Below are positions 12,243 to 47,951 of a stretch of 64,000 nt of DNA, piece after piece. This DNA is from an uncultured Planctomycetia bacterium (GTDB lineage Bacteria; Omnitrophota; Gorgyraeia; Tantalellales; Tantalellaceae). Numbering within the stretch: position 1 is the stretch's first letter; each line of letters starts with the position of its first letter. Location of the stretch: assembly GCA_964565425.1 (NCBI GenBank), contig CAZMEZ010000003.1, forward strand, positions 18,991 through 82,990. Direction: 5' to 3'. The translations under genes and the position numbers were made by a program. The notes under the pieces were generated by a model that was not told where the DNA came from, made no database searches, and saw only the letters and a list, made by a program, of their open reading frames with translations.

Positions 12243-13334
12243 TTATTCCGCCATTGCGTAGGTATGGCCTTTATCGTATCCCTTATAATGCGCTTCCAGT
12301 ATCTCCTGGGCCGGCTTGTTCTGCGGCGTGAACTGACGATTATAAGTTCCTCCCGCGTAGACGTTAGTATCCCATTTCCACCAATAGACGCCCGCGAGCC
12401 AGCGTTCACCCCAGACCGTTTCGAAAAAAGCCCTGTAGCATTTGGCCTGCATTTCGGGGTCGGCGTTGCCTTCCAGTCCGTTCTGCCAGGGCATGTAAGG
12501 GGCGTGGGAAGCGCTCGGATATCCTATTTCGGTGAAGATTATAGGCTTATTTATTTTCTTTTGCCATATTTCCAGGTCTGACTTCCATTTTTCCCAGCCT
12601 TTTTTAAGGTCGTCAACGGTCGGGTCGGATTTGTAGGTCAGAGGGAAATAGGCATCGATCCCGACGTAGTCAAGCTCGTCCCAGAATCTTATGTTCTTGA
12701 AGTTGTCCCAGTTCGCCGCGTAAACGAGCTTTCCCGGATATATTTTACGGACCTTGGCTATCAGTTCTCTCCATTCGGCTTCCTTTTGCGTGGTAAAGGA
12801 GAGTTCGGTACCGATGCAAAAAAGTTCAACGTCGAGATCTCTGGCCAAACGCGCATATTTCAATATGAATTTGCCGTACGCGTCGAACCATTTCTTCCAG
12901 TCGTTTTCGCATGCGAAACCTATGTCCGCGCGCCAATATGTGCCGTCATATTTGTCAATGAGGTCGATATGCGGTTTCAGCGCGACTTTAATGCCGAGTT
13001 TATGGGCCGTTATGATGACGTGACGCAGGCTTCTCGAGCTTGGGCTCTTGTCCGTGGCTTTTATTTCTGTCGAATTATATTTTTCCTGATAATGGGTCGC
13101 GCATACCGAGATATATTCAACGCCGAGGGAGGCGAGTTTTTTAAGGGATTCATCGGAAAATTCAGAGGCAAAACGGTCCTTGTCCCAGGTAACGTAGCAT
13201 ACCCCCTTTTGCAACGGCAAAAATGCGGTTTCGGAATGAAGATCGCAGGGGGGGAATAGGAGCGACATAATTAAAACCGTTGCCAACAAGACGCTCGATA
13301 TACCGTTCTGTTCCTTATCACGGCGCATTGACAT
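12243..13334 (-). CDS. Secreted TIM-barrel glycoside hydrolase (GH5/GH113-like)
   Basis: Signal peptide after MSMRRDKEQ; candidate catalytic glutamates in CIGTELS (acid/base) and IIFTEIGYPS (nucleophile). Start placed at ATG 13334 with RBS GGAGG 6 nt upstream, because the longer track start at 13433 runs into the leader terminator. Confidence 0.65.
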   Translation of the reverse strand: MSMRRDKEQNGISSVLLATVLIMSLLFPPCDLHSETAFLPLQKGVCYVTWDKDRFASEFSDESLKKLASLGVEYISVCATHYQEKYNSTEIKATDKSPSSRSLRHVIITAHKLGIKVALKPHIDLIDKYDGTYWRADIGFACENDWKKWFDAYGKFILKYARLARDLDVELFCIGTELSFTTQKEAEWRELIAKVRKIYPGKLVYAANWDNFKNIRFWDELDYVGIDAYFPLTYKSDPTVDDLKKGWEKWKSDLEIWQKKINKPIIFTEIGYPSASHAPYMPWQNGLEGNADPEMQAKCYRAFFETVWGERWLAGVYWWKWDTNVYAGGTYNRQFTPQNKPAQEILEAHYKGYDKGHTYAMAE

Positions 13335-13345
13335 TTTATCCTCCG

Positions 13346-13394
13346 GAAAAATAAAAAACCCTATTCGATAAAGGTCGCTCCATATCGAATAGGG
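13346..13394 (-). terminator. Intrinsic terminator 13 nt upstream of the hydrolase RBS (putative riboswitch expression platform)
   Basis: On the minus strand, an 11-bp perfect stem CCCUAUUCGAU...AUCGAAUAGGG is followed by UUUUUUAUUUUU. Confidence 0.6.
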
Positions 13395-13435
13395 CTGCAA
13401 GAATCCGGCAATAAATGCCAACATACATTGCATAA

Positions 13436-13532
13436 ATTCGGCGGTCCGACTGCCATGCCCATCGTGAACGAAGAGGGGTTAGGCTCGTGACTTTGCAGTC
13501 CTATTCTTTCGAATAGTTTGCCCCGTTAGAGA
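13436..13532 (-). ncRNA. c-di-GMP-I (GEMM) riboswitch-like aptamer in the 5' leader of the glycoside hydrolase gene
   Basis: The minus-strand RNA reads ...CUAACGGGGCAAACUAUUCGAAAGAAUAGGACUGCAAAGUCACGAGCCUAACCCCUCUUCGUUCACG... This matches the Vibrio Vc2 GEMM core (GGGCAAACCAUUCGAAAGAGUGGGACGCAAAGCCUCCGGCCUAAACC): a GAAA-capped hairpin, the GGAC(U)GCAAAG junction, and a second hairpin with a CCUAA receptor-like loop. Confidence 0.6.
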
Positions 13533-13759
13533 TAGTGTCCCTAACGTGGCAAGCCCCATTGTCCTTAACCCCGATAGAAAAGATTTTCTAACGGGGTATA
13601 ACGGGGTTTGCCTTTATCGATCATGCGAAAATCAGGGTTTAAAAGAACTTTCTCGCCTACAATATCGATTTTAATGATAGAAAAATAAAAAGCAAGATAC
13701 TAACATTTAACTTTTTTATATTTAACGCCTAAATATATATAAACAATATGATATTTTGT

Positions 13760-13788
13760 TTGTCTTGGCTCCCCAATTTCATTATAAT
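13760..13788 (+). promoter_or_regulatory. Candidate sigma70 promoter for greA (TTGTCT-17-TATAAT)
   Basis: Hexamers with 17-nt spacing, ~70 nt upstream of the greA start, in an AT-rich divergent region. Confidence 0.4.
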
Positions 13789-13856
13789 TAGTAGGAAATT
13801 AATTTGCATCTGGTATGGAAATGCCTTGATATTTAACGCTTGGAGGGGAAGGCAGA

Positions 13857-14333
13857 ATGGCGAAGGGAAAGATATCATTGACGCGGGCGGGCCGCGATAA
13901 GATCGTTAAGGAATTGGAAGAGTTGAAAGGCGAAAAAAGGCGCGAGATCGCGAAACAGCTGGCCGAGGCCAGGGCGCATGGTGATCTCAGCGAGAACGCC
14001 GAATACGACGCCGCTAAAGAGGCGCAGGCAATGAATGAAAAGCGTATCGCAGAATTGGAAGAGACACTGATGCGCGCGCGGATAATAGATGAAGACTCCG
14101 TCCCCAAGGACCAGGCTCTGCTTGGCGCGACCGTCCGGGTAAAGGACCTCAGAGGAGGGCAGGAATTCGATTATATCCTCGTGTCGGAGGAGGAGGCGGA
14201 TTTTGAAAATGATAAGATATCCATAACGTCTCCGGTGGGGGGCGCTCTCTTAGGCCACAAGGTTGGAGATGTTGTCGAGATAGCGGTTCCGGCGGGGGCG
14301 CTGGAGTATGAGATAGTTAAGATAAGCAGGTGA
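13857..14333 (+). CDS. greA: Transcription elongation factor GreA
   Basis: N-terminal coiled-coil with conserved acidic tip (AHGDLSENAEYDAAKEAQ) and C-terminal FKBP-like domain. Confidence 0.9.
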   Translation: MAKGKISLTRAGRDKIVKELEELKGEKRREIAKQLAEARAHGDLSENAEYDAAKEAQAMNEKRIAELEETLMRARIIDEDSVPKDQALLGATVRVKDLRGGQEFDYILVSEEEADFENDKISITSPVGGALLGHKVGDVVEIAVPAGALEYEIVKISR

Positions 14334-25696: not shown

Positions 25697-26686
25697 CTAT
25701 TCTTTACTCGGGTAGATCCTGACGTTATCTATATATATCGGTCCCGAGTAGGCAGGTTTATTCGATTCCACCCTTACCGCTATTTTGCGGATGTCCGCCT
25801 TGAATTCCTTGCTTACCGTGGTTCTCCTCCAGGTGGCGCTGTCGCCCTCGGATATATCGGCGGATATCGTGGTCCATTCGCCGGGTTTCATACGCGCGGT
25901 CCGCGTCATTTCCGTCCAGCGCCAATCTTCGCCGATGGTCAATATGATCTTTGCCCGCAACCCTACCGGGGCTTCCGGGGGCAGATAAATATCCACGGAG
26001 ATCGTGTCATAGCCCGTGAGGTTCAGGAAATGCTGTATCTCGACAATAGCCGCGGACCATTTGTCACCGGGAAATTCGGCGTAGATCCCCAGGCTTCCCG
26101 AACCGTTACTTGAGGCGCCTTCCACGGGTTCCATGGTACGGGCCACGTGGTCGGCCTTATCGTAAGTCCAGGAGGGTATTTCCCAGCCATTATCGTTGGT
26201 CTCAAAGTCGTAAAGCAGTTTTCCTCCTGACGCGGCGTTGGTGGCTACCGGGACATCGTACTTGTTCCAGTCATTAAAGAGCTTTTCCCGCACTTCTGGT
26301 TCCTTCTGGGGTGTCCTTGCTTCACGGATCTCGGGCTTTTTCGCCGAAACTAAATTTTCAGCGGGTAATGTAAATATTTTTTTTGCGGGTTTCGGGTCGA
26401 GAGAAATAGCGTATTTTTGCGACAGGAAATATCCCGCGGACAGAATTGCGCCCACCAAGACGACAGAAACCGCAAGCAGAACCTTGCGACCTACCGGTCG
26501 GGAAGGGCGCTTTTCCGGTTTTTTCCCCGCCGGTTTCTTTTGTCCCTCTTGGGGTTTGGCGCTCTTTTTAGCCTTTTCCTCCGGCTGTTCTTTCTTATCG
26601 CCGGTTTCAGGCTTTTCCGCCACGTTTCCGAAATATGCCCTGGAAAGCTCCAGATCTATTTTGTCCTGGATTTGCCGGTTGTTCAT
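25697..26686 (-). CDS. Type-II membrane-anchored protein with an extracytoplasmic beta-sandwich (CBM-like) domain
   Basis: K/P/E-rich N-terminal tail, a single TM (VLLAVSVVLVGAILSAGYFL), then a ~180 aa domain ending ...GPIYIDNVRIYP, typical of carbohydrate-binding beta-sandwich modules. Confidence 0.6.
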   Translation of the reverse strand: MNNRQIQDKIDLELSRAYFGNVAEKPETGDKKEQPEEKAKKSAKPQEGQKKPAGKKPEKRPSRPVGRKVLLAVSVVLVGAILSAGYFLSQKYAISLDPKPAKKIFTLPAENLVSAKKPEIREARTPQKEPEVREKLFNDWNKYDVPVATNAASGGKLLYDFETNDNGWEIPSWTYDKADHVARTMEPVEGASSNGSGSLGIYAEFPGDKWSAAIVEIQHFLNLTGYDTISVDIYLPPEAPVGLRAKIILTIGEDWRWTEMTRTARMKPGEWTTISADISEGDSATWRRTTVSKEFKADIRKIAVRVESNKPAYSGPIYIDNVRIYPSKE

Positions 26687-26965: not shown

Positions 26966-28012
26966 ATGAAAATAATCTCTGTAGCTAATCAAAAAGGCGG
27001 TTGTGGTAAGACAACGCTTGCAGTTAATGTGGCGGCCGCTCTCGCACGGATGGGCAATAAGACTCTCTTGATCGACCTGGACCCGCAGGCGCACGCGACT
27101 TTCGCTCTTGGTTACCTGAAAAAACATTCTGAAAGGAAGACTTCTTATGATATTTTCCGCGCCCGTTTCGACAATGTTGACGCTCCGCTGGAAGAGATAG
27201 TCATAACGGACAGGGAAAGACTGTCTTTTATCCCGGCGAACATGATGCTGAGCGCCGCTGAAATAAACCTCGGCAGCGTTAACGGGGCAGCAGCCATACT
27301 GCATAAGACCCTGCAGGACCCGTTTTTCGCCGAATATGACTACGTGATCGTGGACTCGCCGCCGAGTTTCGGTTTTCTTACGCTCAATTCCATGTATGCG
27401 GCTGACATGATAATAGTGCCGGTGGACCTGAGTTATTTTTCCTTCAACGGCATAAACAGTATTTACAGGGTGACCGGTCTGCTCAATAAGGAAACCGCAA
27501 GGACCCCTTCGGTGTTCTTCGTGATCAACATATATGACAAGCGTTCCAAATTCGCAAAGCAATTCGATAACGATGCGGGTAAAAAGCTCGGCCCGTATCT
27601 TCTCCCGACGAAGATACGCGCGAGTGTACGCCTCAGGGAAACGGCCAGGGAGGGGAAGACGATATTCGAGTATGATCCGAAGAGCCCCGTGGCCCTTGAT
27701 TTTTATAACCTGACAAGCGATATCCTGGCAGCCAATAACAGGGAGATAAAAGAGGTCGTAAAAGAGTTCGCGCTCTATGCGCCGGATGCGGGATCCGTGT
27801 ATGTTCTGGGTGATTTCAACAGCTGGCAGAAGGCCGACAGCAGCAGGCTGAGCAAGCTCGAGAACGGCCACTGGTCGGCCCACTTCACGCTGCCCAGCGG
27901 ACGCACCTATCGCTATAAGTTCCTGGTGGATGAAGAATGGACGCACGACCCGGAAAATTCCGCGCTGGAAAGGAACGCTTTCGGCACCGCCGATTCTATT
28001 CTGAAGCTGTAA
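26966..28012 (+). CDS. ParA/Soj-type P-loop ATPase fused to a C-terminal CBM48 (AMPK-beta glycogen-binding-like) domain
   Basis: Deviant Walker A KGGCGKT in MKIISVANQKGGCGKTTLAVNVAAALA...LLIDLDPQ. The C-terminal ~85 aa (VYVLGDFNSWQKADSS...GHWSAHFTLPSGRTYRYKFLVDEEWTHDPENSALERNAFGTADSILKL) follows the CBM48/AMPK1_CBM consensus almost residue-for-residue. Confidence 0.85.
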   Translation: MKIISVANQKGGCGKTTLAVNVAAALARMGNKTLLIDLDPQAHATFALGYLKKHSERKTSYDIFRARFDNVDAPLEEIVITDRERLSFIPANMMLSAAEINLGSVNGAAAILHKTLQDPFFAEYDYVIVDSPPSFGFLTLNSMYAADMIIVPVDLSYFSFNGINSIYRVTGLLNKETARTPSVFFVINIYDKRSKFAKQFDNDAGKKLGPYLLPTKIRASVRLRETAREGKTIFEYDPKSPVALDFYNLTSDILAANNREIKEVVKEFALYAPDAGSVYVLGDFNSWQKADSSRLSKLENGHWSAHFTLPSGRTYRYKFLVDEEWTHDPENSALERNAFGTADSILKL

Positions 28013-31101: not shown

Positions 31102-31566
31102 GTGGCAGGCGATGCTGATATGACTGGAGAGATCCCCAAAGAAAAAAGGCGATACATCAGGCACCTTCTCGTGAATCCCCTTGAATTCAAGGTCGAAGAG
31201 GGGGGTCAATACGAAAAGACAAGAACGGTCGACGTGAGCGAGGGCGGACTCATGTTCCTCGCGAAAACCAAAGTGGAGAACGGCGCGTTCATACAGCTCC
31301 AGATGCCGCTGTATGACAAGGTTTTCAAGATAAAGGCGAAGGTCGTGCATACCGAGAAAGACGAGGGCTCCGGACTTTTAAGAGTGGGTGTCGCTTTTGT
31401 CAATTATGCCGACGCATTCAAGGTAAAACTCATCGAACAGATCTATCTTATTGAGGAATACCGCGTCCTCAGGTCGCTCCAGACCGGGAAAGAAATGACC
31501 CTCCAGGACGCTTCCAAGGAATGGATCAAGCGTTATTCCGAACGCTTCGAAAAACTCTACTGGTAG
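31102..31566 (+). CDS. PilZ-domain protein (putative c-di-GMP receptor)
   Basis: RRYIRH (RxxxR) followed by DVSEGG (D-x-S-x-GG) PilZ signature. Confidence 0.65.
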   Translation: MAGDADMTGEIPKEKRRYIRHLLVNPLEFKVEEGGQYEKTRTVDVSEGGLMFLAKTKVENGAFIQLQMPLYDKVFKIKAKVVHTEKDEGSGLLRVGVAFVNYADAFKVKLIEQIYLIEEYRVLRSLQTGKEMTLQDASKEWIKRYSERFEKLYW

Positions 31567-31847: not shown

Positions 31848-31872
31848 GTGGAATGAAGTGGAGGGAAGTGGA
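31848..31872 (+). promoter_or_regulatory. Three GTGGA direct repeats at exactly 10-bp spacing (candidate MraZ operator)
   Basis: GTGGAatgaaGTGGAgggaaGTGGA ends 1 nt before the mraZ GTG start, and a fourth GTGGA lies in the promoter spacer. MraZ proteins bind spaced direct repeats of G-rich pentamers. Confidence 0.45.
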
Positions 31873-32313
31873 GTGTTTTACGGAGAATATTCACATAGGC
31901 TCGATAAAAAGAACCGCCTGATCATCCCGGCGGATTTCCGCGGGATCATCACGGACAAGGGGATCGAAGCGTTTTATCTGAACCGCGGACTGGACGAATG
32001 TCTTTTCATGTTCCCCGAGAGCGAATGGAAGACGCAGGAAGCCAAGTTCAAGGAGATGTCGTTCACAAAAAGAGAAGTAAGAAAGTTCAGCCGCATGTTC
32101 TTTGCCGGTGCCGTTGAGGTAGCGCCCGACAAGCAATGGAGGATACTGATACCCGATTATCTGAAGGAATACGCTAAGCTGAAAAGGAACATAATCATAA
32201 TAGGTGTTTCCAGTCGCATCGAGATCTGGGACAAGGACAAATGGGAAGAGTTCTACAGGTCCTCGAAAGAAAATTATGAGGAGATAGCCGAAAGGCTTAT
32301 AACCGACATATAA
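31873..32313 (+). CDS. mraZ: Transcriptional regulator MraZ
   Basis: Two SpoVT/AbrB-like halves with the DxxxR motifs (LDKKNRLIIPADFR; KQWRILIPDYLK); GTG 31873 with RBS GGAGG gives the N-terminus MFYGEY. Confidence 0.9.
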   Translation: MFYGEYSHRLDKKNRLIIPADFRGIITDKGIEAFYLNRGLDECLFMFPESEWKTQEAKFKEMSFTKREVRKFSRMFFAGAVEVAPDKQWRILIPDYLKEYAKLKRNIIIIGVSSRIEIWDKDKWEEFYRSSKENYEEIAERLITDI

Positions 32314-32335
32314 CGGTTGAAACCGGGGGGTCAAT

Positions 32336-32527
32336 ATGTATAGGAGATACGCGCTGAAGTTCAACAAGAAACAGGTAGAGTTCATAAATTGCATCAATAT
32401 GGTCGAAAGGATCAGGAAGGCAAGAGCCCTTCCTGAGGGGATCGCGCATCTCGGCGTCAAGCAATATGCCGTCTCTTCGACGGGTCTGGGAAAAAAGACC
32501 TATTTTACGGTAAGGGATTGTGAATAA
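32336..32527 (+). CDS. Hypothetical 63-aa ORF in the mraZ-rsmH spacer
   Basis: ORF only; RBS-like GGGGGG upstream; no family. Confidence 0.25.
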   Translation: MYRRYALKFNKKQVEFINCINMVERIRKARALPEGIAHLGVKQYAVSSTGLGKKTYFTVRDCE

Positions 32528-32797
32528 GAACGTGATGGCGGGTATAGCGCGCCGGAGCGGGCGCGGCATTCAAATTTAAAGGGTGGAGGTCCGCCATGAG
32601 GAAATACCTGCAGGCATGTGAGATCGGCGGTTCGATATACGGGAAACACCGTGAGATCCCCCAAAAAAGGGTTTCCGGAACGCGCCGGAATAGCAGAGAA
32701 GGAGCCGTAGCGTCTTATCACGCGTTTTATAAAAGCCAAGTCGACGCCTTGTACAAGGTTTTCAGGCGCGACGGCTGAATGAGGAAAGGATATCCCC

Positions 32798-33682
32798 TTG
32801 CATCTTCCGGTTCTTTTGAACGAGGTGATAGAGAACCTTAAACTTGAGGCGGGAGATGTGATCCTCGACGGGACTTTGGGTGGCGGAGGACATTCGTTCG
32901 AGATCCTCCGGCGGATAGTTCCGGGAGGAAGGTTGATCGGGGTAGACAGGGACCCGGAAGCGGTCGAGAGGGCGCGAAAGGCCCTCGAAAGCTATGCCGG
33001 GAACACAGAACTGATCAATGATAATTTCCGCGCCATCGATCTGATATTGAAAAAGGCAGGGGAAGAAAGGATCGACGGCGCGCTATTCGACCTGGGGATA
33101 TCCTCTTTTCAGATCGACGAAGGCGAAAGGGGTTTCAGTTTTTTGCGGGACGGCCCTTTGGATATGAGATTCGATGCCGGCGGGGAGATCTCGGCAAGGG
33201 ATGTCGTGAACGGTTTCGGGGAAGAAGAGATAGCCGATATTATAAGGGACTACGGAGAGGAAAGACACGCCAAACTTGTGGCCAGAGCCATTTGCTCCGA
33301 GAGGAAGCGAAAAAGGATAGATACCACCGGCGACCTTGTTGATGTTATACACAGGGCGGTAGGCAGGAAATATACCCGGCAGCGCATACATCCGGCGGCC
33401 AGAACGTTCCAGGCGCTGAGGATCTTTGTCAACGACGAGCTTGGGTCGGTAGAGAATGGTATAAGGAAAACGATAACATATCTAAATCCGGGGGCCAGGA
33501 TATGCGTTATCTCTTTCCATTCTCTTGAGGACAGGATCGTAAAGAATATTTACAGGGCAGAGGCGGGAGCAGGCACCCTGGCGATAATAAATAAAAAGCC
33601 GATACGCCCCGGCGGGGATGAAGTGCGGAAGAACCCGAGATCGAGAAGCGCAAAGCTTCGGGTGGCAGAAAGGGTAAAATGA
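32798..33682 (+). CDS. rsmH: 16S rRNA (cytosine1402-N4)-methyltransferase RsmH (MraW)
   Basis: HLPVLLNEV...ILDGTLGGGGHS and the FQIDE/SFHSLEDR motifs; TTG start with RBS. Confidence 0.9.
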   Translation: MHLPVLLNEVIENLKLEAGDVILDGTLGGGGHSFEILRRIVPGGRLIGVDRDPEAVERARKALESYAGNTELINDNFRAIDLILKKAGEERIDGALFDLGISSFQIDEGERGFSFLRDGPLDMRFDAGGEISARDVVNGFGEEEIADIIRDYGEERHAKLVARAICSERKRKRIDTTGDLVDVIHRAVGRKYTRQRIHPAARTFQALRIFVNDELGSVENGIRKTITYLNPGARICVISFHSLEDRIVKNIYRAEAGAGTLAIINKKPIRPGGDEVRKNPRSRSAKLRVAERVK

Positions 33683-34041
33683 TATTGTACAGGTGGATAT
33701 TAACGGGGATATTGATAACGGTAATGGCGGGCGGCTATGTCCACCAAAAGGTCGAGATCGTGAAGGCGGGATATGCCATTCAGAAAAGCAGGAAGCACCT
33801 CTCGTATCTCGTTGACCAGAATTCCAAGTTGACGTATAATCTATCCAAGCTCGAATCTCCCAGAAATCTGCTTACCTCGATGGACGGAGAGCAAGTGAAA
33901 TTCGCCAACCACAGGGTGAAACGTCCGGAAAGCTTCCAGATCGCCCAGGCCGATCTTGATGATGGCGGTGCCAACAGTGGTTTTGTCGGCAGGATCCTAG
34001 ATCTCTTTACCGTGAGCGCCGAAGCAAGACCCCGTAAATAA
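33679..34041 (+). CDS. ftsL: Cell division protein FtsL
   Basis: Small bitopic protein (TM plus coiled coil) between rsmH and ftsI; ATGA overlap. Confidence 0.7.
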   Translation: MILYRWILTGILITVMAGGYVHQKVEIVKAGYAIQKSRKHLSYLVDQNSKLTYNLSKLESPRNLLTSMDGEQVKFANHRVKRPESFQIAQADLDDGGANSGFVGRILDLFTVSAEARPRK

Positions 34042-34053
34042 CGCGTGTAACTT

Positions 34054-35763
34054 TTGAGAGGCACAATGTCAAGAGCGCGCCAGTATTCGGTGTTTTTCTT
34101 TTTTATCATTCTCCTTGTGCTCCTTTTCTACCGGCTTTTCTACCTCCAGGTCCTGAATTACGAGAGATTTTCCTCAATAGCGTCGGGCCAGCATAACAAG
34201 GTGCTCAAGATAGAGCCCCGAAGAGGCACTATTTACGACAGGTACATGGAGCCGCTTGCGATCAACCTTGACGTCCCCAGCGTTTACTGTGACCCCAGGA
34301 GCGTCAGGGACAAAGAACGTACCGCGGACACATTGGCCGGGATCCTCGGCATTGACAGGGACGGTCTTCTGGAGAAGCTTAACAAGGATAAGGCTTTCGT
34401 CTGGGCAAAGCGCAAAATAGACGCGGACACTGCCGGGAAGATCAAGAAAGCCGACCTGGAGGGCGTGTTCTTCATGACCGAAAGCAGAAGGAACTATCCC
34501 AGTGACAACCTGGCGGCACACGTCATAGGTTTTGTGGGCGTGGATAACGTCGGCCTTGAGGGGATAGAGACCGAATATGACGAGAAGCTGAAAGGCAAGT
34601 TCGGCTGGAGGCATCTTGTCAGGGACGCGAAACGAAGAACGGTTCTTTATAATGATAAAGATTCGATCCCGGCACAGAACGGATATAATATCGTACTCAC
34701 TATCGACGGGGTGATACAGTGCATAGTTGAGGAAGAGATCCGTGAAATGGCCAGAAGGCATAACGCCGCGAGCGCTTCGATCATCGTCATGGACCCCGGT
34801 ACGGGGGAGATCCTGGCTATGGCGAACTACCCGGATTACGATCTCAATTCATTTTCGGAGGCGCCGAGAGAGGTAATGAAGAACACGTCGATCTCAAACG
34901 TGTATGAGCCCGGGAGCGTATTCAAGATAGTAACCGCCTGCGCCGCTCTGAACGAAAGGGTGGTGGGGCTGGAAGACATGTTCGATTGCGAAAAAGGTGA
35001 ATATAGCGTGGGAGGCAGGGTTCTGCATGATTTTCACAGGTACGGGAACCTGCCCTTCGCCGATATTATCGCAAAGTCCAGTAATATAGGGGTCGTAAAG
35101 GTGGCCCAGATGCTCGGGGAGGAAAGGCTGTTCGCTTACATGCAGATGTTCGGTTTCGGAGAGAAGACGGGGATCGATCTTCCGGGGGAAGTGAACGGCA
35201 TAACAAGACCGCCGACCGAGTGGTCGCGCAGCGATATTTCCACGATACCCATAGGGCAAGGAGTCGCCGTAACGCCGCTTCAGATGATATGCGCCGTCAA
35301 TGTGATCGCGAACGGCGGATATCTCATGAAACCGCATGTTGTCGACAGAATAACCACCTGGGAAGGGGAGACATGCAAGGAATTCAGGCCAGGCCTGAAG
35401 CGCCGCGTGCTGAACAAGGAAACATCCGAAAGGATGAAGGAGGCGATGGCCCGCGTGGTTACGGACGGGACGGGAAAGCGCGCGGAATCGAAGCTTTACG
35501 AAGTATGCGGTAAAACCGGAACCGCGCAGATGGTGAAGCCGGGAGGCGGGTATTATGACGATAAATATTACGCGACCTTTGTAGGTTTCGCGCCGAGAGA
35601 GCGACCCGTTATAAGTGTTATAGTGGCCGCCAGGGATCCCCATCCCGTTCATTTCGGCGGGACCGTGGCCGGCCCTGTTTTCAAAAAGATAACGGAAAGG
35701 GCTCTGCAATATCTGGGATCCAATAGCAAAAAAGCCAAAAGAGCGGAAACTTTTTATGAGTGA
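34054..35763 (+). CDS. ftsI: Peptidoglycan D,D-transpeptidase FtsI (class B PBP3)
   Basis: N-terminal TM, PBP dimerisation domain, and transpeptidase motifs SVFK, SSN and KTGTA. Confidence 0.85.
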   Translation: MRGTMSRARQYSVFFFFIILLVLLFYRLFYLQVLNYERFSSIASGQHNKVLKIEPRRGTIYDRYMEPLAINLDVPSVYCDPRSVRDKERTADTLAGILGIDRDGLLEKLNKDKAFVWAKRKIDADTAGKIKKADLEGVFFMTESRRNYPSDNLAAHVIGFVGVDNVGLEGIETEYDEKLKGKFGWRHLVRDAKRRTVLYNDKDSIPAQNGYNIVLTIDGVIQCIVEEEIREMARRHNAASASIIVMDPGTGEILAMANYPDYDLNSFSEAPREVMKNTSISNVYEPGSVFKIVTACAALNERVVGLEDMFDCEKGEYSVGGRVLHDFHRYGNLPFADIIAKSSNIGVVKVAQMLGEERLFAYMQMFGFGEKTGIDLPGEVNGITRPPTEWSRSDISTIPIGQGVAVTPLQMICAVNVIANGGYLMKPHVVDRITTWEGETCKEFRPGLKRRVLNKETSERMKEAMARVVTDGTGKRAESKLYEVCGKTGTAQMVKPGGGYYDDKYYATFVGFAPRERPVISVIVAARDPHPVHFGGTVAGPVFKKITERALQYLGSNSKKAKRAETFYE

Positions 35764-37213
35764 AACGCTTGATCGTTTAATGGAAAAGGGCTTGTTGAGC
35801 GGGGCAAACGTCAGGACCGATTCCCGCCAGGTAAGACGTGGTGATGTTTTCGTGGCCGTGAAAGGGGCTGAACAGGACGGACATGGATACATAAAGGAGG
35901 CGTTCGGCAAGGGGGCGTCTTACGTTTTGTGTCAGAGACGGGTGGATGGATTAGCGGGAGACGAGGTCGAAAGGACCGTGGTGGTGCCGGATACCCGGGA
36001 AGCGATCGCAAAAATAGCGAAAAAGGTATTCGATGATCCTTCGGGTTCGCTCATGGTTTACGGCGTGACCGGCACGAACGGTAAAACGACCACGGTTTTC
36101 TTGATAGACGGTATCCTGAATAACGCCGGCAGGCCGAGCGGCCTGGTCAGCACCGTTTTTGCCAAGACCTCCGGAAAAGACCTGGTACGCTCGACAATGA
36201 CAACCCCTGACGCGATCAGTTTGAACCGCATGCTTGCGGAGATGGTCAAAAACGGCAAAAAGGCCGCGGTCATAGAGATGTCCAGCCACGCCCTCGACCA
36301 GAAAAGGACATGGGGGATAATGCTCGAGAGCGCGGTTTTTACCAATATCACCCCGGAACACCTCGATTATCACGGTGATATGGCGACCTATCTGATCGAT
36401 AAATCAAAGATATTCAATAACCTTAAACCCGGAGGCGCTCCGGTGCTTAACGCCGACGACCCTATGGTCGCGGGGATCATGGAAACCATGAAGTTCTCCA
36501 GGGTCGTTACTTTCGGGATAAAGGAGAAAGATGCCGATGTGAGGGCGGAGGGCGTAGAATTGTCCTCCGAAGGAACGGGGTTCGATCTCGTTGTAAGCGG
36601 GGAGGGCTCCGTTCATATCCGGACAGTGTTCATAGGCGAGCACAATATTTACAACATGCTGGCGGCTTCGGCGGCCCTTTTGAACGACGGGATCGGGTTG
36701 GATGGGATCAAGCTGGGGTTGGAGGCCGCCAGGCCCGTGCCGGGACGTTTGGACGCGGTGGCATCAGCGGCACCTTTCCGTGTGTTCGTGGATTACGCGC
36801 ATACGCCCAATGCCCTGGAGAACGTTCTTCGCTGCACGCGTTTTCTAGCGAAGAACCGCCTGATATGCGTCTTCGGCTGCGGAGGCGACAGGGACAGGAC
36901 GAAAAGGCCGGTCATGGGGAAGATAGCTGCCGATATATGCGACAGGGTGATATTGACAAGCGACAACCCAAGGACGGAGGATCCGGGTAGCATACTTCGA
37001 CAGATCGAAAAGGGTGTGCTTAATAAGAGCAACTATAGTATAATACCACAAAGACGCGAAGCCATAAGAGAGGCCCTGAAAGCCGCTAAAGACGGGGATA
37101 TCGTGGTGATAGCCGGCAAAGGGCACGAGGATTATCAGATAGTCGGGGACAAGGTCCTTCATTTTGACGACAAGGAAGTAGCCGGAGAAATACTCAGGGA
37201 CATGGGATATTAA
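35756..37213 (+). CDS. murE: UDP-N-acetylmuramoyl-L-alanyl-D-glutamate--2,6-diaminopimelate ligase
   Basis: Mur ligase P-loop GVTGTNGKTTT; DNPR motif; position in the cluster. Confidence 0.9.
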   Translation: MSETLDRLMEKGLLSGANVRTDSRQVRRGDVFVAVKGAEQDGHGYIKEAFGKGASYVLCQRRVDGLAGDEVERTVVVPDTREAIAKIAKKVFDDPSGSLMVYGVTGTNGKTTTVFLIDGILNNAGRPSGLVSTVFAKTSGKDLVRSTMTTPDAISLNRMLAEMVKNGKKAAVIEMSSHALDQKRTWGIMLESAVFTNITPEHLDYHGDMATYLIDKSKIFNNLKPGGAPVLNADDPMVAGIMETMKFSRVVTFGIKEKDADVRAEGVELSSEGTGFDLVVSGEGSVHIRTVFIGEHNIYNMLAASAALLNDGIGLDGIKLGLEAARPVPGRLDAVASAAPFRVFVDYAHTPNALENVLRCTRFLAKNRLICVFGCGGDRDRTKRPVMGKIAADICDRVILTSDNPRTEDPGSILRQIEKGVLNKSNYSIIPQRREAIREALKAAKDGDIVVIAGKGHEDYQIVGDKVLHFDDKEVAGEILRDMGY

Positions 37214-38640
37214 TGCAAGCGGCAGGCCGGGAACTTGAGGCTGCAGATCAAAATATAAGTAAGATGGTACATATAACACCGAAAGATATCGCGAAGATAA
37301 CCGGAGGAAGACTGGTCTCAGGAAAGGAAGGCGTCCCCGTAACCGGGTTCTCGATAGATTCGAGAACGATATCTCCGGGGGATATATTTATAGCCGTAAA
37401 GGGAAGGCATTTCGACGGGCATGATTTTATCGGGGAAGCCCTGAGAAAGGGCGCGTCCGGTTTGCTTTTGCGGAAGGATCCGGGAAAAAGTATCCGGGGG
37501 AAAGCGTCGCATGTCATATCGGTGGACGATACCCGGGAAGCGATGGGCGCTATAGCGTCCTGGATAAGAAAGCGGGTGGATATACCCGTTGTTTGCATAA
37601 CGGGGACGAATGGTAAAACAACGGTCAAAGACCTGCTCTCGCACGCGCTTGCTTCCCGTTACAAGGTGCTGAGCAGCAGAAGATCTTACAACAACATCAT
37701 CGGCCTCAGTCTTACGCTTTTCGATCTTGACCCCTCGCATGAAGTGGCGGTACTTGAATTGGGGACCAACCACCCGGGAGAGATACCGAAACTCGCCGGT
37801 ATAGCCGGACCGAATATCGCCGTAATAACAAATATCGGAGACGGTCATCTGGAGGCGTTCGAGGACAGGAAGGGGGTCTTCGTGGAAAAGATCAGTTTGT
37901 TGGAATTCCTGCCCGAGGAGGGCATGGTCTTTCTCAATAAGGACGACAGCTTGTTGTCAAGGTCATCGGTCAGGGGCGTTACCCGGAAATTTTACGGTAT
38001 TTCGCGCGGATCGGATTTTCTTATCTCGCATATCTCCAGGAAGGAGAACGGATATGAGTTTAGCCTCAACGGCGAAAGGTATTTTACTCCCCTGGAGGGG
38101 GAGCATAATGTACATAACGCGGCGGTATCGGCGGCGGTAGCGGGATATTTCGGGATGTCTCCGGAGGAGATACGGGTAAGCTTTAAGACCGTTTCCCCGC
38201 CCGCGATGCGGGTGGAGAAGGTCAAGGTCGAAGAGATAACGTTCATAAATGATTCATACAACGCCAATCCGGATTCGTTCGAGCGCGCTCTTGATGTGCT
38301 CGAGTCGGTTTCCGGGAGTTGTGTTAAGGGGGTTGTTGCCGGGGACATGATGGAGCTCGGCGGAAGATCCGACGAGTTTCACAGGATGATCGGCAGAAGT
38401 ATCCGGGAAAGGGGCATCGATTTCCTGATAACACTGGGCGATAGGGCATGGCACATGGCCGAAGGGGCTCTTGATTCAGGCATGGTTGCGTCGAAAGTGA
38501 TGCGCGCCCATACCCATGAGGATGCCGCGGAAATTGTCCGGAAAATGGCCGGGCCCGGGACAGTGGTGTTGCTGAAAGGCTCAAGAGAAGCAAGAATGGA
38601 GGAAGTGCTCAAGTGTTTTACCATCTTTTGTACCCATTAA
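37213..38640 (+). CDS. murF: UDP-MurNAc-tripeptide--D-alanyl-D-alanine ligase
   Basis: ITGTNGKTTVKDL Mur ligase motif; position in the cluster. Confidence 0.9.
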   Translation: MQAAGRELEAADQNISKMVHITPKDIAKITGGRLVSGKEGVPVTGFSIDSRTISPGDIFIAVKGRHFDGHDFIGEALRKGASGLLLRKDPGKSIRGKASHVISVDDTREAMGAIASWIRKRVDIPVVCITGTNGKTTVKDLLSHALASRYKVLSSRRSYNNIIGLSLTLFDLDPSHEVAVLELGTNHPGEIPKLAGIAGPNIAVITNIGDGHLEAFEDRKGVFVEKISLLEFLPEEGMVFLNKDDSLLSRSSVRGVTRKFYGISRGSDFLISHISRKENGYEFSLNGERYFTPLEGEHNVHNAAVSAAVAGYFGMSPEEIRVSFKTVSPPAMRVEKVKVEEITFINDSYNANPDSFERALDVLESVSGSCVKGVVAGDMMELGGRSDEFHRMIGRSIRERGIDFLITLGDRAWHMAEGALDSGMVASKVMRAHTHEDAAEIVRKMAGPGTVVLLKGSREARMEEVLKCFTIFCTH

Positions 38641-39701
38641 AGGAGTACTGGTTCGGGTTTAACGTTTTTCGTTACATAACGTTCAGGGCCAGCATGGCGG
38701 CCGTGATGTCGTTCGTTGTCTGTCTGATATTGGGGCCGTTCATCGTAAAGTTGCTGAAGAGCCTGGACGCCGGCCTGTACGTGTGGAAAAAGCACGCCGA
38801 CAGCCTGTATGACATCCATAAGCACAAAGAGGGAACGCCTACAATGGGGGGGCTTTTGATAATCGTGGCGGTTCTCGTTTCGTCGCTTTTATGGTGCCGC
38901 CTGGATAACGACTACGTGTTATTGGCGCTGGGCGGTATGGTATGGCTCGGCGTGATCGGCTTCATGGACGACATTATCAAAATACGGACCAAGAGCGCCA
39001 TGGGGATACGGGCCATGACAAAGCTTGGCGGACAGGTGCTGCTTGCTCTGATAGTGGGCCTTTTCGTGATAAACAATAAAGCCATAGGGGCTGACCTGTA
39101 TCTTCCGTTCGTAAAGAACGCGGTTGTCAACCTCGGTGTTTTTTATGTGCTTTTTGTGCTGCTCGTGATAGTGGGGACAAGTAACGCCGTAAATCTCACC
39201 GATGGTCTTGACGGGCTGGCTATAGGTTGTGTGGTGTTCATTACGCTTACATACGCGGTCATTAGCTACGTTACGGGCAATGCGGTGATAAGCCGCTATC
39301 TCCAGGTTTTTTATCTTCCCGGTTCGGGCGAACTTACCGTTTTTTGCGCGGCGCTTACCGGGGCCGCGCTCGGTTTCCTTTGGTTCAATAGCCATCCCGC
39401 CACCATCTTCATGGGGGATACCGGGTCTTTGGCGCTGGGTGGAGCGATCGCTATCGTAAGCGTGCTTATCAAGAAAGAAATACTTCTTTTGCTGGCCGGG
39501 GGAGTGCTCGTGGTCGAAGCGCTTTCGGTGATACTCCAGGTAGCGTCGTTCAAGTTAAGAAAAAAGCGCCTTTTTCTTATGTCGCCCATACATCATCATT
39601 TCCAGATCAAAGGGATGTACGAGTCGAAGATCACGGTGCGTTTTTGGATAATCGCGGCGATCCTCGCGCTCCTCAGTATGACCACGTTGAAGGTGAGGTA
39701 A
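38613..39701 (+). CDS. mraY: Phospho-N-acetylmuramoyl-pentapeptide transferase
   Basis: N-terminus YWFGFNVFRYITFRA; NAVNLTDGLDGLA and DTGSLALGG motifs. Confidence 0.9.
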   Translation: MFYHLLYPLKEYWFGFNVFRYITFRASMAAVMSFVVCLILGPFIVKLLKSLDAGLYVWKKHADSLYDIHKHKEGTPTMGGLLIIVAVLVSSLLWCRLDNDYVLLALGGMVWLGVIGFMDDIIKIRTKSAMGIRAMTKLGGQVLLALIVGLFVINNKAIGADLYLPFVKNAVVNLGVFYVLFVLLVIVGTSNAVNLTDGLDGLAIGCVVFITLTYAVISYVTGNAVISRYLQVFYLPGSGELTVFCAALTGAALGFLWFNSHPATIFMGDTGSLALGGAIAIVSVLIKKEILLLLAGGVLVVEALSVILQVASFKLRKKRLFLMSPIHHHFQIKGMYESKITVRFWIIAAILALLSMTTLKVR

Positions 39702-39847
39702 GCCCGGGGATTGATGGGTGGGTTTCGTCGATCGTCGTTCGAATCTCGGGCCATCGATTAAGTAATATAAAGTGTACACGAAATCCGGACCCCGGACAAC
39801 GAACGACGGTTTACGGTTCACGAACATGTATCCAAATTCAGTTCACT
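39702..39847. repeat. CGTCGAT/CGAACGA stutter spacer between mraY and murD (family F3)
   Basis: gtttcgtcgatcgtcgttcgaatctcgg ... gacaacgaacgacggtttacggttcacgaac. Confidence 0.7.
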
Positions 39848-41185
39848 ATGTTTAACGTCAAAGACAAAAAAGTCCTCGTTGTCGGTCTTGGCGCGAGCGG
39901 ATACGCGGCTGCGGAACTGTCGGCCCGCAAGGGAGCGGTTGTCGGGATAACCGAAAGTTCCGACAACAAGGAAGTTCGAGAAAGGCTCAGCAGGTTGTCG
40001 CGCTATCACCCGCGATACGAGATAGGGCGCCATACCGAGGAATTTTGCGGCTCTGCCGATCTTGTCGTTACGAGTCCGGGTATCGACCCCGGGGTTCTGC
40101 CGCTGAAGGTCGCGCGGAAAGAGGGGAAAGAGATAATAGGGGAACTGGAATTGGCTTACAGGTTCTGTGAGGCCCCGATAATAGCAGTTACGGGTACGAA
40201 CGGTAAAAGCACCACCACGGAGCTTATCGGGAATATAATATCCCGTTCCGGCAGACATGTCGTGGTTTGCGGCAATATAGGGAACCCTTTGAGCGGGGAA
40301 GTCAATCGCCTCAAGAAAGACAGTATTGCGGTGGTAGAGGTGAGTTCGTTTCAGATGGAGACCGTGAAGGAGTTCAGGCCGCATATCGGCGTGCTTCTGA
40401 ACGTCGCGGAGGATCATTACGAGCGACATGGCGACTTTGAAACGTACAAAGCCGAGAAGTTCAGGATGTTCGGCAACCAGTCCGAAAGTGATTGGGCCGT
40501 GCTGCATTCGGATCTCAAGGGCGATCCGATAGCGCGCCGGATAAGGGCACAGAAGATCTTCTTCGGAGGTCCGGGCTCGGAGGCATCCGTTGAAGGCGGA
40601 CGTGTCATCATGGATATAGGAGGCGCGGGCAGGGTAGTGATAGAGGAAAAAGATATACCGATCAGGGGTGTCCATAACATGGAGAATGTCGCGTGCGCCA
40701 TCCTTGTTTCGAGGATCATGGGAGTCGAAGACCGGCACGCGCATGAAGGCGTTGCGAACTTCAAGGGCCTGAGTCACAGGTTCGAAAGGGTGACCGAACT
40801 GGGCGGGGTCGAATTCATTGACGATTCAAAAGCGACCAACATTGACGCGACAAGACGCGCGCTTGAGTCGATCGACAGAAAGGTGGTCTTAATAGCCGGC
40901 GGGAGAGATAAGGGCGGAGACTATGAGGCAATATTCGACCTGGTAAAAGAGAAGGTGAAGGCCATGGTCGTAATAGGCGAAGCGAGCGAAAAGATAAAGA
41001 GCGCTTTTTCCGGAGCCGTAACCGTTGTATCCGCCGGGGACATGTCTGAAGCGGTGAAGATGTCGATGCGGGAGGCAAGCGAAGGAGAAGCGGTCCTTCT
41101 TTCTCCGATGTGCTCAAGTTTCGATATGTTCACGGATTACAAGCACCGGGGCAGGGTGTTCAGGGAAGAAGTAGAGAGGCTGTAG
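39848..41185 (+). CDS. murD: UDP-N-acetylmuramoylalanine--D-glutamate ligase
   Basis: KKVLVVGLGASG Rossmann motif and AVTGTNGKSTT; start at ATG 39848 (the track ORF is extended upstream through a repeat region). Confidence 0.9.
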   Translation: MFNVKDKKVLVVGLGASGYAAAELSARKGAVVGITESSDNKEVRERLSRLSRYHPRYEIGRHTEEFCGSADLVVTSPGIDPGVLPLKVARKEGKEIIGELELAYRFCEAPIIAVTGTNGKSTTTELIGNIISRSGRHVVVCGNIGNPLSGEVNRLKKDSIAVVEVSSFQMETVKEFRPHIGVLLNVAEDHYERHGDFETYKAEKFRMFGNQSESDWAVLHSDLKGDPIARRIRAQKIFFGGPGSEASVEGGRVIMDIGGAGRVVIEEKDIPIRGVHNMENVACAILVSRIMGVEDRHAHEGVANFKGLSHRFERVTELGGVEFIDDSKATNIDATRRALESIDRKVVLIAGGRDKGGDYEAIFDLVKEKVKAMVVIGEASEKIKSAFSGAVTVVSAGDMSEAVKMSMREASEGEAVLLSPMCSSFDMFTDYKHRGRVFREEVERL

Positions 41186-41447
41186 GCGCAAGGCGGTGTC
41201 AGTCATCAGACATCAGCGTGGAGCTGGGCGAGGAGTGTTCGCATAGCGCATGGCGCAAAGGGCATAGCGGGTTAAGTGATAAGTAATACGTAATATGTGA
41301 TACGTGGTGTAGGGGGCGCGGGAGCTGTATCTTGTATCTAGTATCTGGTTGACGTGTTTCTTGACGAACAACGAAAAACGAGCGACGAACAACGACTTTG
41401 CCCGATCTATCGGGCACTTATAGCTTAAAGCTTACATCTGACGAAAA
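41186..41447. repeat. Composite intergenic repeat element (copy B), homologous in a mosaic way to 8313-8790
   Basis: Begins GCGCAAGGCGGTGTCAGTCATCAGA right after the murD stop. Contains GAGTGTTCGCATAGCGCATGGCG, GTGATAAGTAATACGTAATATGTGATACG, GACGAACAACGAAAAACGAGCGACGAACAACGAC and CTTATAGCTTAAAGCTTA. Confidence 0.75.
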
Positions 41448-42557
41448 ATGAGCAAAGACGCAAAGATCGTTTTTATAGTGACGTGCGTGCTATTGATGCT
41501 GGGGACCGTCATGATATATTCTTCCAGCGGCGTTTACGCGCATGGGAACTACGGGGACAGTCTGTATTTTGCAAAAAGACACCTCGCTTATCTGGCGGCG
41601 GGGCTGATCGCCGCCGTGGTATGCATGGCCGCGCCTATAAGAGGCATAAATGATTCCGCCAGGATAATAATGATCATTTCCGTTGTCATTCTCGTGGCGG
41701 TCCTGGTGCCCGGCATAGGCAAACAGGTAGCCGGAGCGCGCAGGTGGATGCGTTTTTTCGGCGCGGGTTTTCAGCCTTCCGAGATCGCGAAGCTTGGTCT
41801 TATAATCTACCTGGCGGATCTGACCTCTCGCAAGAGGTATCTGGTCCAGGATTTCAGGCGAGGATTCCTGCCGCCGCTGGTGGTCACCGGATTTGTCAGC
41901 GGCCTTATTCTTGTTGAACCCGATATGGGGACATCGGTTGCCGTGCTGTTCATCGGACTTGCGATGATGTTCATATCCGGCTCCAGGATCTCTCACCTGG
42001 CTCTTATTACGGGAGGAACACTGCCCGTCCTGGCCATTGCCGCGATCTGCGAGCCATACCGGATGAAACGCCTGTTGACGTTCTCCGATCCCTGGAAAGA
42101 CGCCAGGGGGGCCGGATTCCAGCTGGTCCAGTCTTTCATAGCGCTGGGGTCTGGCGGACTCCTGGGCGTGGGCCTGGGCGCGTCAAAACAGAAACTTTTT
42201 TATCTGCCCGAATCGCATACGGATTTTATTTTTTCGATAATTGGAGAAGAGCTGGGATTCCTTGGGGCGGCGTCGGTCCTTATGCTCTTTGCCGCCATTA
42301 TATGGTTTTCCCTCAGGATATCTTTCAAGGTGAAGGACCTTTTTGCCTCACGCCTTGTTTTCGGCATAACCGTCATGATAGCTTTCGAGGTTCTTGTTAA
42401 TATAGGGGTTTCCACCGGGGTGCTGCCCACAAAGGGTTTGCCTTTACCGTTCATAAGTTATGGGGGGACCTCGCTTGTCTGTCACATGGCGGCGATGGGG
42501 CTGGTGTTCAATATGTCGAGGGAAGTTGAGGATGAGACCGTGAACCGTAATCCGTAA
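41448..42557 (+). CDS. ftsW: SEDS-family peptidoglycan glycosyltransferase FtsW
   Basis: 10-TM FtsW/RodA family (PSEIAKLGLIIYLA; GGTSLV); position between murD and murG. Confidence 0.85.
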   Translation: MSKDAKIVFIVTCVLLMLGTVMIYSSSGVYAHGNYGDSLYFAKRHLAYLAAGLIAAVVCMAAPIRGINDSARIIMIISVVILVAVLVPGIGKQVAGARRWMRFFGAGFQPSEIAKLGLIIYLADLTSRKRYLVQDFRRGFLPPLVVTGFVSGLILVEPDMGTSVAVLFIGLAMMFISGSRISHLALITGGTLPVLAIAAICEPYRMKRLLTFSDPWKDARGAGFQLVQSFIALGSGGLLGVGLGASKQKLFYLPESHTDFIFSIIGEELGFLGAASVLMLFAAIIWFSLRISFKVKDLFASRLVFGITVMIAFEVLVNIGVSTGVLPTKGLPLPFISYGGTSLVCHMAAMGLVFNMSREVEDETVNRNP

Positions 42558-42609
42558 ACCGTGACCCGTTGGTTGGATCACTATTCACGGATCACGGTAT
42601 AAAAATACT
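42558..42609. repeat. CCGTGAA/CCGTAAT/CCGTAAA/CCGTGAC heptamer stutter with an inverted partner (ftsW-murG spacer)
   Basis: aaccgtgaaccgtaatccgtaaaccgtgacccg ... cacggatcacgg. Confidence 0.7.
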
Positions 42610-46056: not shown

Positions 46057-46059
46057 AGG

Positions 46060-46152: not shown

Positions 46153-46159
46153 AGGTTAC

Positions 46160-47942: not shown

Positions 47943-47951
47943 TAAAGTAAA

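Follow-up and report, generated by a model that had tools for sequence, protein, structure and literature searches.

High levels of cyclic di-guanosine monophosphate (c-di-GMP) usually go together with a sessile, matrix-producing state. Among the class I c-di-GMP (GEMM-I) riboswitches, Cd1, which is found upstream of flgB in Clostridioides difficile, is a terminator-type OFF switch. The members of GEMM-I that are selective for cyclic GMP-AMP (cGAMP), GEMM-Ib, carry A20 instead of a G. In the Vc2 aptamer of Vibrio cholerae, the ligand is contacted by G20, A47, and C92 (residue list from PMC4744006). The Bc1 riboswitch of Bacillus thuringiensis has a long platform with combined transcriptional and translational control, in which two tandem terminators bring about an incoherent dual regulation (PMC11218506). 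Here, a stretch of 64,000 nucleotides (nt) from an uncultured Planctomycetia bacterium placed in the Omnitrophota (assembly GCA_964565425.1, contig CAZMEZ010000003.1) was analyzed, and this whole stretch is called the window. On its minus strand, a leader of about 330 nt precedes a monocistronic gene for a glycoside hydrolase of family 113 (GH113). This leader is a class I c-di-GMP riboswitch that probably works as an OFF switch.

The aptamer and its insert

A scan of both strands of the window against Rfam at gathering thresholds gave one match only. This was RF01051 (c-di-GMP-I) at 13532-13437 of the minus strand, which scored 62.1 bits (gathering score 35) with an E-value of 9.5e-10 over model positions 1-87 of 87. 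No match to RF01786 was reported in that scan. A permissive scan of 13200-13900 added just chance-level matches (E-values of at least 0.8). The initial annotation had proposed a class I c-di-GMP riboswitch and named this search as its test, and the score bears it out; the RNA that it quoted was found at 13523-13475 of the minus strand. The features of the aptamer, as obtained from the Rfam alignment, from relatives, and from minimum free energy (MFE) folds, are as follows, where P1, P2, and P3 are the paired regions and J1/2 is the segment that joins P1 to P2.

13437 to 13532, minus strand: RF01051 match (62.1 bits; covariation in 30 relatives)
13521 to 13520 with 13496 to 13495, minus strand: G21C22 pairing with G45C46, inside the Rfam match
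13516 to 13501, minus strand: P2, with its GAAA loop at 13510-13507, inside the Rfam match
13492 to 13443, minus strand: P3, inside the Rfam match, as are A47 (13494), C92 (13441), C44 (13498), and G83 (13450)
13618 to 13626, minus strand: 5' strand of P1 (GCAUGAUCG), whose partner in the unconstrained MFE fold is 13440-13430, with the register seen in relatives
13430 to 13440, minus strand: 3' strand of P1 (CGAAUUUAUGC), from covariation and MFE folds
13612 to 13617, minus strand: J1/2, AUAAAG, whose last base (13612) is the likely equivalent of G20 by family conservation
13522 to 13611, minus strand: insert of 90 nt at the G20/G21 junction, which separates 13626-13612 from GCAAAC (13521)
13612 to 13600 with 13560 to 13548, minus strand: stem I of the insert, enclosing a hairpin at 13597-13568, from the fold
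13546 to 13524, minus strand: hairpin II of the insert, from the fold

The relatives were found through the GH113 protein. In the species-representative genome collection, homologues at 36-76% identity are present at 34 loci, nearly all of them labelled Candidatus Omnitrophota or uncultured Planctomycetia. Metagenomes contributed 23 more loci, and an identical protein is present on one short Logan contig. Of the 31 genome loci with upstream sequence, 27 carry an aptamer of the c-di-GMP-I clan in the same orientation, between 70 and 220 nt ahead of the GH113 start. The same holds for 14 metagenome loci, and one additional aptamer is cut by a contig end. These counts indicate that the link between the riboswitch and GH113 is an old, conserved feature of the lineage. 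One of the 27 genome aptamers (L024, 2755-2848) has its best score with RF03167 (c-di-GMP-I-GGC; 66.9 bits, gathering score 59). In its GCAAAG, judged by eye, an A is retained at the A47 position.

Every hallmark of RF01051 that is open to computation is present in the window element. The GAAA tetraloop is in P2, and its receptor (GCCUAAC at 13484-13478 and CAUGGC at 13457-13452) is in P3. By alignment, G13612 (or G13522), A13494, and C13441 stand for G20, A47, and C92, and C13498-G13450 is the interhelical C44-G83 pair. These five columns are invariant or nearly so in 30 relatives. Both candidates for position 20, 13612 and 13522, are G and not the A of the cGAMP-sensing GEMM-Ib, which argues for c-di-GMP over cGAMP as the ligand. 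Binding of c-di-GMP by the window aptamer can be expected from these residues. Covariation, the other check that had been named for the annotated fold, agrees with it. The alignment holds 30 aptamers, 27 of them plain and three with inserts spliced out (the window and the loci L029 and L013). Over P1, the G21C22:G45C46 pairs, P2, and P3, 91.5% of the cells are paired and both sides change in 20 of the 29 pairs. None of 500 shuffles was as high, and slid partners gave 24-44%. P1 alone has changes on both sides in six of its eight pairs among relatives. The leader of the GH113 gene is, on this comparative evidence, a genuine class I c-di-GMP (GEMM-I) riboswitch, which is an established class.

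P1 can only be built in the window with the strand 13626-13618, upstream of the insert, which pairs with 13440-13430. The usual start of the aptamer in relatives is AUCAAACGAUAAAGGCAAAC, and its AUCAAACG portion pairs with CGAAUUUGAU past P3 to form P1. In the window, UCUCUAACG is found directly upstream of GGCAAAC (13522-13516) and P1 is impossible there; the sequence immediately upstream of the Rfam match is likewise incapable of forming it. The canonical piece, GCAUGAUCGAUAAAG, is at 13626-13612, 90 nt farther upstream. The same site is occupied in L029 (86 nt, after GAUAAAG) and L013 (54 nt). In these three leaders, the near-invariant CGAUAAAG of the family is followed by the insert instead of by GCAAAC, and the canonical GAUCGAUAAAG is displaced upstream by 90 nt (window), 86 nt (L029), or 54 nt (L013). 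Once the inserts are spliced out, all three align with the other 27 aptamers and all invariant columns are present.

The first 11 positions of the RF01051 model were aligned to the 3' strand of hairpin II and not to the true J1/2. Since the true piece is 90 nt upstream, the real aptamer, as read from sequence and folds, spans about 13626-13430 and has a five-way junction in place of the three-way one. The unconstrained MFE fold of 13662-13318 yields P1, stem I with its inner hairpin, hairpin II, P2, all of P3, and also the terminator and the outer helix described in the next section. The initial annotation had the core right. Its span of 13346-13532 covers the Rfam match but omits the 5' strand at 13626-13612, about 90 nt upstream of where it began, along with 79 of the 90 nt of the insert (13611-13522), which went unnoticed, and the 3' strand that sequesters the ribosome binding site (RBS) and AUG, down to 13327.

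Each insert folds alone, from its first to its last nucleotide, into stem-loop domains, with z-scores of -6.0 in the window (-40.5 kcal/mol), -9.4 in L029, and -3.8 in L013. The L029 insert has the architecture of the window insert, and that of L013 consists of two hairpins in 54 nt. There are compensatory differences in stem I, which reads GCAAACCCC/GGGGCUUGC in the window and ACGUCCCCCG/CGGGGGGCGU in L029 and is paired in both. The helix and not the sequence is therefore conserved. The aptamer presumably tolerates the insert. Other origins for the insert were considered and set aside. A repeated or mobile element finds no support, as CGTTAGRGA occurs 23 times in the window against 26 expected and a BLAST search with the three inserts recovers, from the window and all loci, just the inserts themselves. 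A known RNA family is not indicated either by the permissive Rfam scan described above. The upstream GGCAAAC (13612-13606) is not a duplicated piece of the aptamer: it forms one side of stem I, the 5' strand, where L029 pairs despite a different sequence. Further insert-bearing aptamers were sought in metagenome contigs with the pattern GATAARG-N65-95-GCAAACTATTYGAAAGAATAGG, with 0 matches, and the 23 additional loci anchored by the protein contain none.

P2 has another kind of insert, a twin hairpin of about 40-45 nt in its 5' strand, directly before CGAAAG, at L007 (2352-2432), L012 (2785-2915), and L028 (2740-2872). The L012 aptamer is the same as that of L040, and the L028 aptamer the same as that of L038. 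In these three, the GAAA "tetraloop" is closed by one pair and the Rfam scores are the lowest or near-lowest (44-56 bits). A rather doubtful idea is that the two-hairpin inserts at G20/G21 (three genomes) and the twin-hairpin inserts in P2 (three others) form a functional five-way-junction subclass. The extra domain would then tune the balance of terminator and antiterminator or add a second input (protein or RNA), and would not be a neutral expansion.

The expression platform and the direction of control

Downstream of the aptamer, the leader contains a terminator, a helix around it that includes the Shine-Dalgarno (SD) sequence, and two segments, called A' and B', that are complementary to the aptamer.

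13347 to 13396, minus strand: intrinsic terminator, with stem 13396-13383 paired to 13370-13357, a loop of 12 nt, and U6AU5 at 13358-13347, from sequence and MFE fold
13404 to 13422, minus strand: 5' strand of the outer helix (anti-SD and anti-AUG), paired with 13347-13327 in the MFE fold
13327 to 13347, minus strand: 3' strand of the outer helix, with the SD GGAGG (13345-13341) and AUG (13334-13332), from the MFE fold
13367 to 13374, minus strand: A' (CCUUUAUC), in the terminator loop and the start of its 3' arm, complementary to GAUAAAGG (13618-13611) and the best partner of the aptamer core strand in the window (-10.7 kcal/mol)
13387 to 13393, minus strand: B' (CCUAUUC), part of the terminator 5' arm and complementary to the 3' arm of P2, GAAUAGG (13506-13500), for which it is the best duplex partner in the window (-10.2 kcal/mol; one of 200 shuffles did as well)

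The hairpin starts 42 nt past the end of the Rfam match. It has 12 perfect Watson-Crick pairs, CCCUAUUCGAUA (13394-13383) with UAUCGAAUAGGG (13370-13359), and a 12-nt loop; there are 14 pairs in the MFE fold. Sequence and fold thus give the expected arrangement of an intrinsic terminator, a stem of 12-14 base pairs (bp) and then U6AU5, ahead of the RBS. From the stem to GGAGG there are 13 nt. A simple terminator scan did not pick the hairpin, as loops of 3-8 nt were permitted. Most relatives have a homologous hairpin and U-tract. A perfect hairpin with a U-tract 13 nt before the RBS had already been annotated, though with 11 bp and at about 50 nt from the aptamer. The annotated attenuation platform holds as far as there is a terminator in the leader. 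It is not a standalone attenuator, since it lies within a helix by which the SD and AUG are sequestered and is linked to the aptamer.

In all relatives that were folded, the MFE structure has the terminator hairpin nested in a long helix that joins the segment after P1 to the region of the SD and start codon. The outer helix of the window covers three of the five bases of GGAGG and the whole AUG. Its duplex has -20.1 kcal/mol with the cognate strand versus -12.0 with non-cognate strands, and none of 200 shuffles was as good. Across loci, the averages are -23.9 (cognate) versus -14.1 kcal/mol (non-cognate), and 15 of 17 loci beat all 200 shuffles. The outer strands vary greatly between loci and remain complementary within each. 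In the MFE folds, the terminator and outer helix overlap no part of the aptamer.

Two complementarities connect the aptamer with the terminator. The first, A:A', pairs the core strand GAUAAAGGCAAA (G14 to A25) in the family with UUUGCCUUUAUC, a segment made up of the terminator loop and the four bases that open its 3' arm. About 25 of 30 loci have the best duplex partner of the core strand at this position (-10 to -16.5 kcal/mol), and on 25 loci 84.7% of the cells pair versus 35-52% with a slid partner. Changes of U16 to C are matched by A-to-G in four of five cases (U:A to C:G at the compensatory loci L009, L010, L019, and L050). At L006, A has one base fewer and so does A'. The second, B:B', pairs the P2 3' arm GAAUAGGRC with the terminator 5' arm GCCCUAUU, and is the best partner in about 24 of 30 loci. 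Matched variants are GGAUGGGG with ACCCUAUCC in L014 and AAUAGGAA with UUCCUAU in L026. A:A' and B:B' are nested and jointly exclude the terminator. In the window they comprise 8 bp (13618-13611 with 13374-13367) and 7 bp (13506-13500 with 13393-13387).

The energies of the alternative folds are close. The MFE fold of the L003 and L004 transcripts cut after A' is the antiterminator; at the end of the 3' arm, its energy equals that of the fold with aptamer and terminator or differs by at most 0.1 kcal/mol. The difference of antiterminator minus terminator at that point has a median of -1.2 kcal/mol over 18 loci. The window transcript cut after A' holds A:A' only (7 bp) in its MFE fold, and not the full antiterminator. 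The insert-bearing leaders lean to termination, with +3.3 (window), +1.8 (L029), and +0.6 kcal/mol (L013). Such a shift would follow from an interruption of the A:A' helix by the insert, which may thus tune basal expression according to these models.

From these pairings, the following mechanism can be proposed. Without c-di-GMP, the 5' half of the aptamer would pair with the terminator loop and 5' arm (13618-13611/13374-13367 and 13506-13500/13393-13387), and RNA polymerase would read through. The antiterminator would also trap the anti-SD strand in its own loop, away from the SD and AUG. Inside that loop the strand could not reach the SD without a pseudoknot. With c-di-GMP, strands A and B would be locked in the aptamer and the terminator of 12-14 bp would form. 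In any transcript that is still read through with ligand, the outer helix (13422-13404/13347-13327) would bury the SD and AUG. The net effect would be that high c-di-GMP represses a putatively exported mannanase-family enzyme at transcription and translation, both in the same direction. The nearly equal modelled energies of the alternative folds point to the OFF direction, and an OFF switch is what we consider probable for this leader.

There are several points that weigh against such a switch. Ligand binding and direction come from thermodynamic models in which tertiary structure, ligand energy, and folding kinetics play no part. The window terminator is favored without ligand by about 2-3 kcal/mol once it is complete (+3.3 in the comparison of 18 loci). 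Because the antiterminator consists of 8 + 7 bp over about 240 nt and the terminator is already favored, termination could be largely constitutive. The covariation of A:A' is thin, with double changes in two of 12 pairs, because A is the near-invariant ligand-binding core. The positions and register of A' were picked with complementarity in view, so that the statistical support is modest. Finally, the insert beside G20 might impair binding, and the role of G20 could fall to 13612 or to 13522, the last base of the insert.

An ON switch with the same aptamer, in which c-di-GMP prevents termination and sequestration and so induces the hydrolase, is unlikely. Class I c-di-GMP riboswitches of both polarities exist. 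Vc1, for example, activates expression (PMC4744006). The terminator and outer helix are also the ground state of the full window leader by about 8 kcal/mol, and a default OFF state needs relief, which such a switch would supply. However, the terminator and outer helix have no overlap with the 3' side of the aptamer, so ligand binding cannot sequester a terminator strand. A:A' and B:B', the only conserved links from aptamer to platform, compete with aptamer and terminator together, and their logic is OFF.

It is very unlikely that the leader is a decaying or constitutive attenuator, in which the 90-nt insert has inactivated sensing and most transcripts terminate. The position of the insert, abutting both G20 and G21, would fit such decay, as would the lean of the three insert-bearing leaders to termination against the median of -1.2 kcal/mol and the shortening of the A' pairing with the core strand to 8 bp in the window. 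Yet all family-invariant columns are intact in the window after splicing and P1 has been maintained with a distant 5' strand. The end-to-end closure of the inserts in all three genomes, together with the compensatory differences in stem I between the window and L029, indicates selection that holds the junction together.

Least probable is that the leader senses another cyclic dinucleotide (such as 3'3'-cGAMP, as in GEMM-Ib) or that the insert adds a second input from a protein or ligand: the RF01051 family includes cGAMP-sensing members, the relative L024 scores best with a variant model (RF03167), and a CGUUAG motif recurs in both hairpins of the inserts in the window and L029, but the equivalents of G20 and C92 are G and C, the c-di-GMP signature, the L013 insert has just the two-hairpin shape in common with the other two and no sequence similarity to them, and the insert has no Rfam match.

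The regulated gene and its surroundings

The OFF switch preferred here would act on a single gene. This gene, the motifs upstream of the aptamer, and one other open reading frame (ORF) that bears on c-di-GMP are listed below.

12243 to 13334, minus strand: gene for a GH113 glycoside hydrolase of 363 amino acids, from Pfam, PDB matches, and homologue alignment
13668 to 13695, minus strand: promoter-like element, with -35 TTGCTT (13695-13690), a 16-nt spacer, and -10 TAAAAT (13673-13668), from conservation
13642 to 13648, minus strand: leader motif G(U/C)UCUUU, 9-20 nt past the -10-like box in nearly all related leaders
31102 to 31566, plus strand: PilZ-domain ORF (PF07238, 52.5 bits)

The product matches the Pfam family GH113 (PF22612) with 230.6 bits against a cutoff of 27. 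The solved beta-1,4-mannanases 5ylh, 7dv7, and 3civ match it with E-values of 1.5e-37 to 1.9e-33. Both catalytic Glu motifs align with those of 5ylh, and profile and glutamates together place the protein in GH113. Of the earlier label "GH5/GH113-like," only the second half can be retained. From this similarity, the enzyme may act on a substrate of the beta-mannanase type. There is an N-terminal hydrophobic segment (MSMRRDKEQNGISSVLLATVLIMSLLFPP...), as judged by eye, that resembles an export signal or membrane anchor, and the enzyme is possibly exported. The gene has no companion on the minus strand: greA (13857-14333) is divergently oriented, and on the other side an unannotated ORF is convergent. 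The start of the longest ORF, 13433, was rejected as the start codon, being upstream of the terminator; homologues align from the AUG at 13334 (residue 1).

Upstream of the leader, TCTTGCTTTTT...TATCATTAAA(A/C)T is kept in most related loci, including those that have no riboswitch. A consensus promoter scan did not report the element at 13668-13695, and its conservation suggests that it may serve as a promoter. The riboswitch-less loci are one clade (L021, L022, and L048) and distant or tandem paralogues. In this clade (about 61% identity), the promoter-like sequence TCTTGCTTTCG... is kept about 300 nt upstream of the GH113 match, and the leader has apparently been lost. At L052, the matched GH113 homologue closely follows the end of another one (1-808), its tandem paralogue, and no riboswitch lies between them.

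The motif G(U/C)UCUUU resembles an anti-SD sequence. No covarying partner for it was found across loci, and pairing of GUUCUUU with the P2 loop and 3' arm or with the SD was rejected, as no covariation was visible by eye. Many loci (L036, L038, L039, L040, and L029) also have a conserved AT-rich element, GTTAAAnATTAAATAG, some 12 nt before the -35-like TTGCTT. The window copy, at about 13707-13727 of the minus strand, is degenerate. The element could be an UP element or the binding site of a regulator. In the early leader, AAACCCUG (13640-13633, minus strand) is complementary to UAGGGUUU (13363-13356), the end of the terminator 3' arm and the first Us. The two pair in constrained folds of truncated transcripts and have a weak mirror in L029 only, and this may be chance.

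The PilZ-domain gene at 31102 had been taken in the initial annotation as a sign of c-di-GMP control of the hydrolase. The domain is real, but a functional link to the GH113 locus does not follow, as the ORF is 18 kb off and has unrelated genes around it. The ORF indicates only a probable use of c-di-GMP by the organism. It is just upstream of mraZ/mraW of the cell-division cluster. The 29 ORFs scanned included no GGDEF or EAL gene. A second mannan-related protein may be encoded at 25697-26686 (minus strand), where there are weak matches to CBM27 (32.7 bits) and to a mannanase galactose-binding-like domain. No riboswitch was found upstream of that ORF at the Rfam gathering threshold. Other genes of the window include a division and cell-wall cluster after the PilZ ORF (31858-49081, plus strand; mraZ, mraW, ... 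ftsQ, ftsA-like) and MreB and a PBP2-like gene at 58725-62998. There is also an unusual fusion of a ParA/MinD-type ATPase with a C-terminal glycogen-binding domain like CBM48/AMPK1_CBM (26966-28012, plus strand).

Comparison with described systems

The riboswitch class is ordinary and the architecture is modestly unusual; current understanding is not overturned by the window riboswitch. Class I c-di-GMP riboswitches are extended to the Omnitrophota, a mostly uncultured phylum, with one conserved target, a putatively exported mannanase-family enzyme. This gives a concrete, testable link between the level of c-di-GMP and the degradation of polysaccharides. Repression of a mannanase-family enzyme at high c-di-GMP would suit matrix turnover, dispersal, or feeding at low c-di-GMP, although this is speculative. 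The ligand-binding junction of a well-studied aptamer can evidently carry an insert of 54-90 nt, and homology searches will therefore mis-assign the 5' boundary of such aptamers. With a terminator nested in an SD-sequestering helix and an antiterminator formed from the ligand-binding strand, the leader could be a clean natural model for the study of control at both levels, transcription and translation. A literature search of incomplete coverage found nothing on c-di-GMP riboswitches in Omnitrophota, with mannanases or other glycoside hydrolases, or with inserts at G20, and riboswitch regulation of GH113 mannanases was not found in the literature searched.

The enzyme can be compared with AxMan113A (5ylh) and AaManA (3civ). 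It belongs to the same Pfam family, GH113, and the whole TIM barrel is aligned. The Glu motifs are kept as well, with GTE-L corresponding to GCE-M and FTE-IG to FVE-AG. Sequence similarity to these two is just distant, however, and the window protein has an N-terminal hydrophobic leader.

The closest aptamer is Vc2 of V. cholerae (RF01051). Both have the three-helix core, the GAAA tetraloop in P2, and the CCUAA/(C/U)AUGG receptor in P3, and by alignment the G20, A47, and C92 contacts and the C44-G83 pair are present in the window (PMC4744006). Unlike Vc2, the window aptamer has an insert of 90 nt with two stem-loops between G20 and G21, and the 5' strand of its P1 is about 90 nt off. Its GAC-U-GCAAAG has one extra nucleotide, a common feature of this clade. 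The host also belongs to another phylum, and another gene is regulated.

In the Cd1 type, ligand promotes intrinsic termination in the 5' leader, as is predicted for the window. The differences are that the window antiterminator would consist of the aptamer 5' half (J1/2 and the P2 3' arm) with the terminator loop and 5' arm, and that a helix sequestering the SD and AUG encloses the terminator. With Bc1, the window leader shares the long expression platform and the layers of transcription and translation. Unlike Bc1, it has one terminator in one sequestering helix, and both layers are predicted to work in the same direction. The non-standard points are the insert in the ligand junction, together with the twin-hairpin inserts in P2 of L007, L012, and L028, the use of the aptamer 5' half as the antiterminator strand, and the terminator nested in the sequestering helix.

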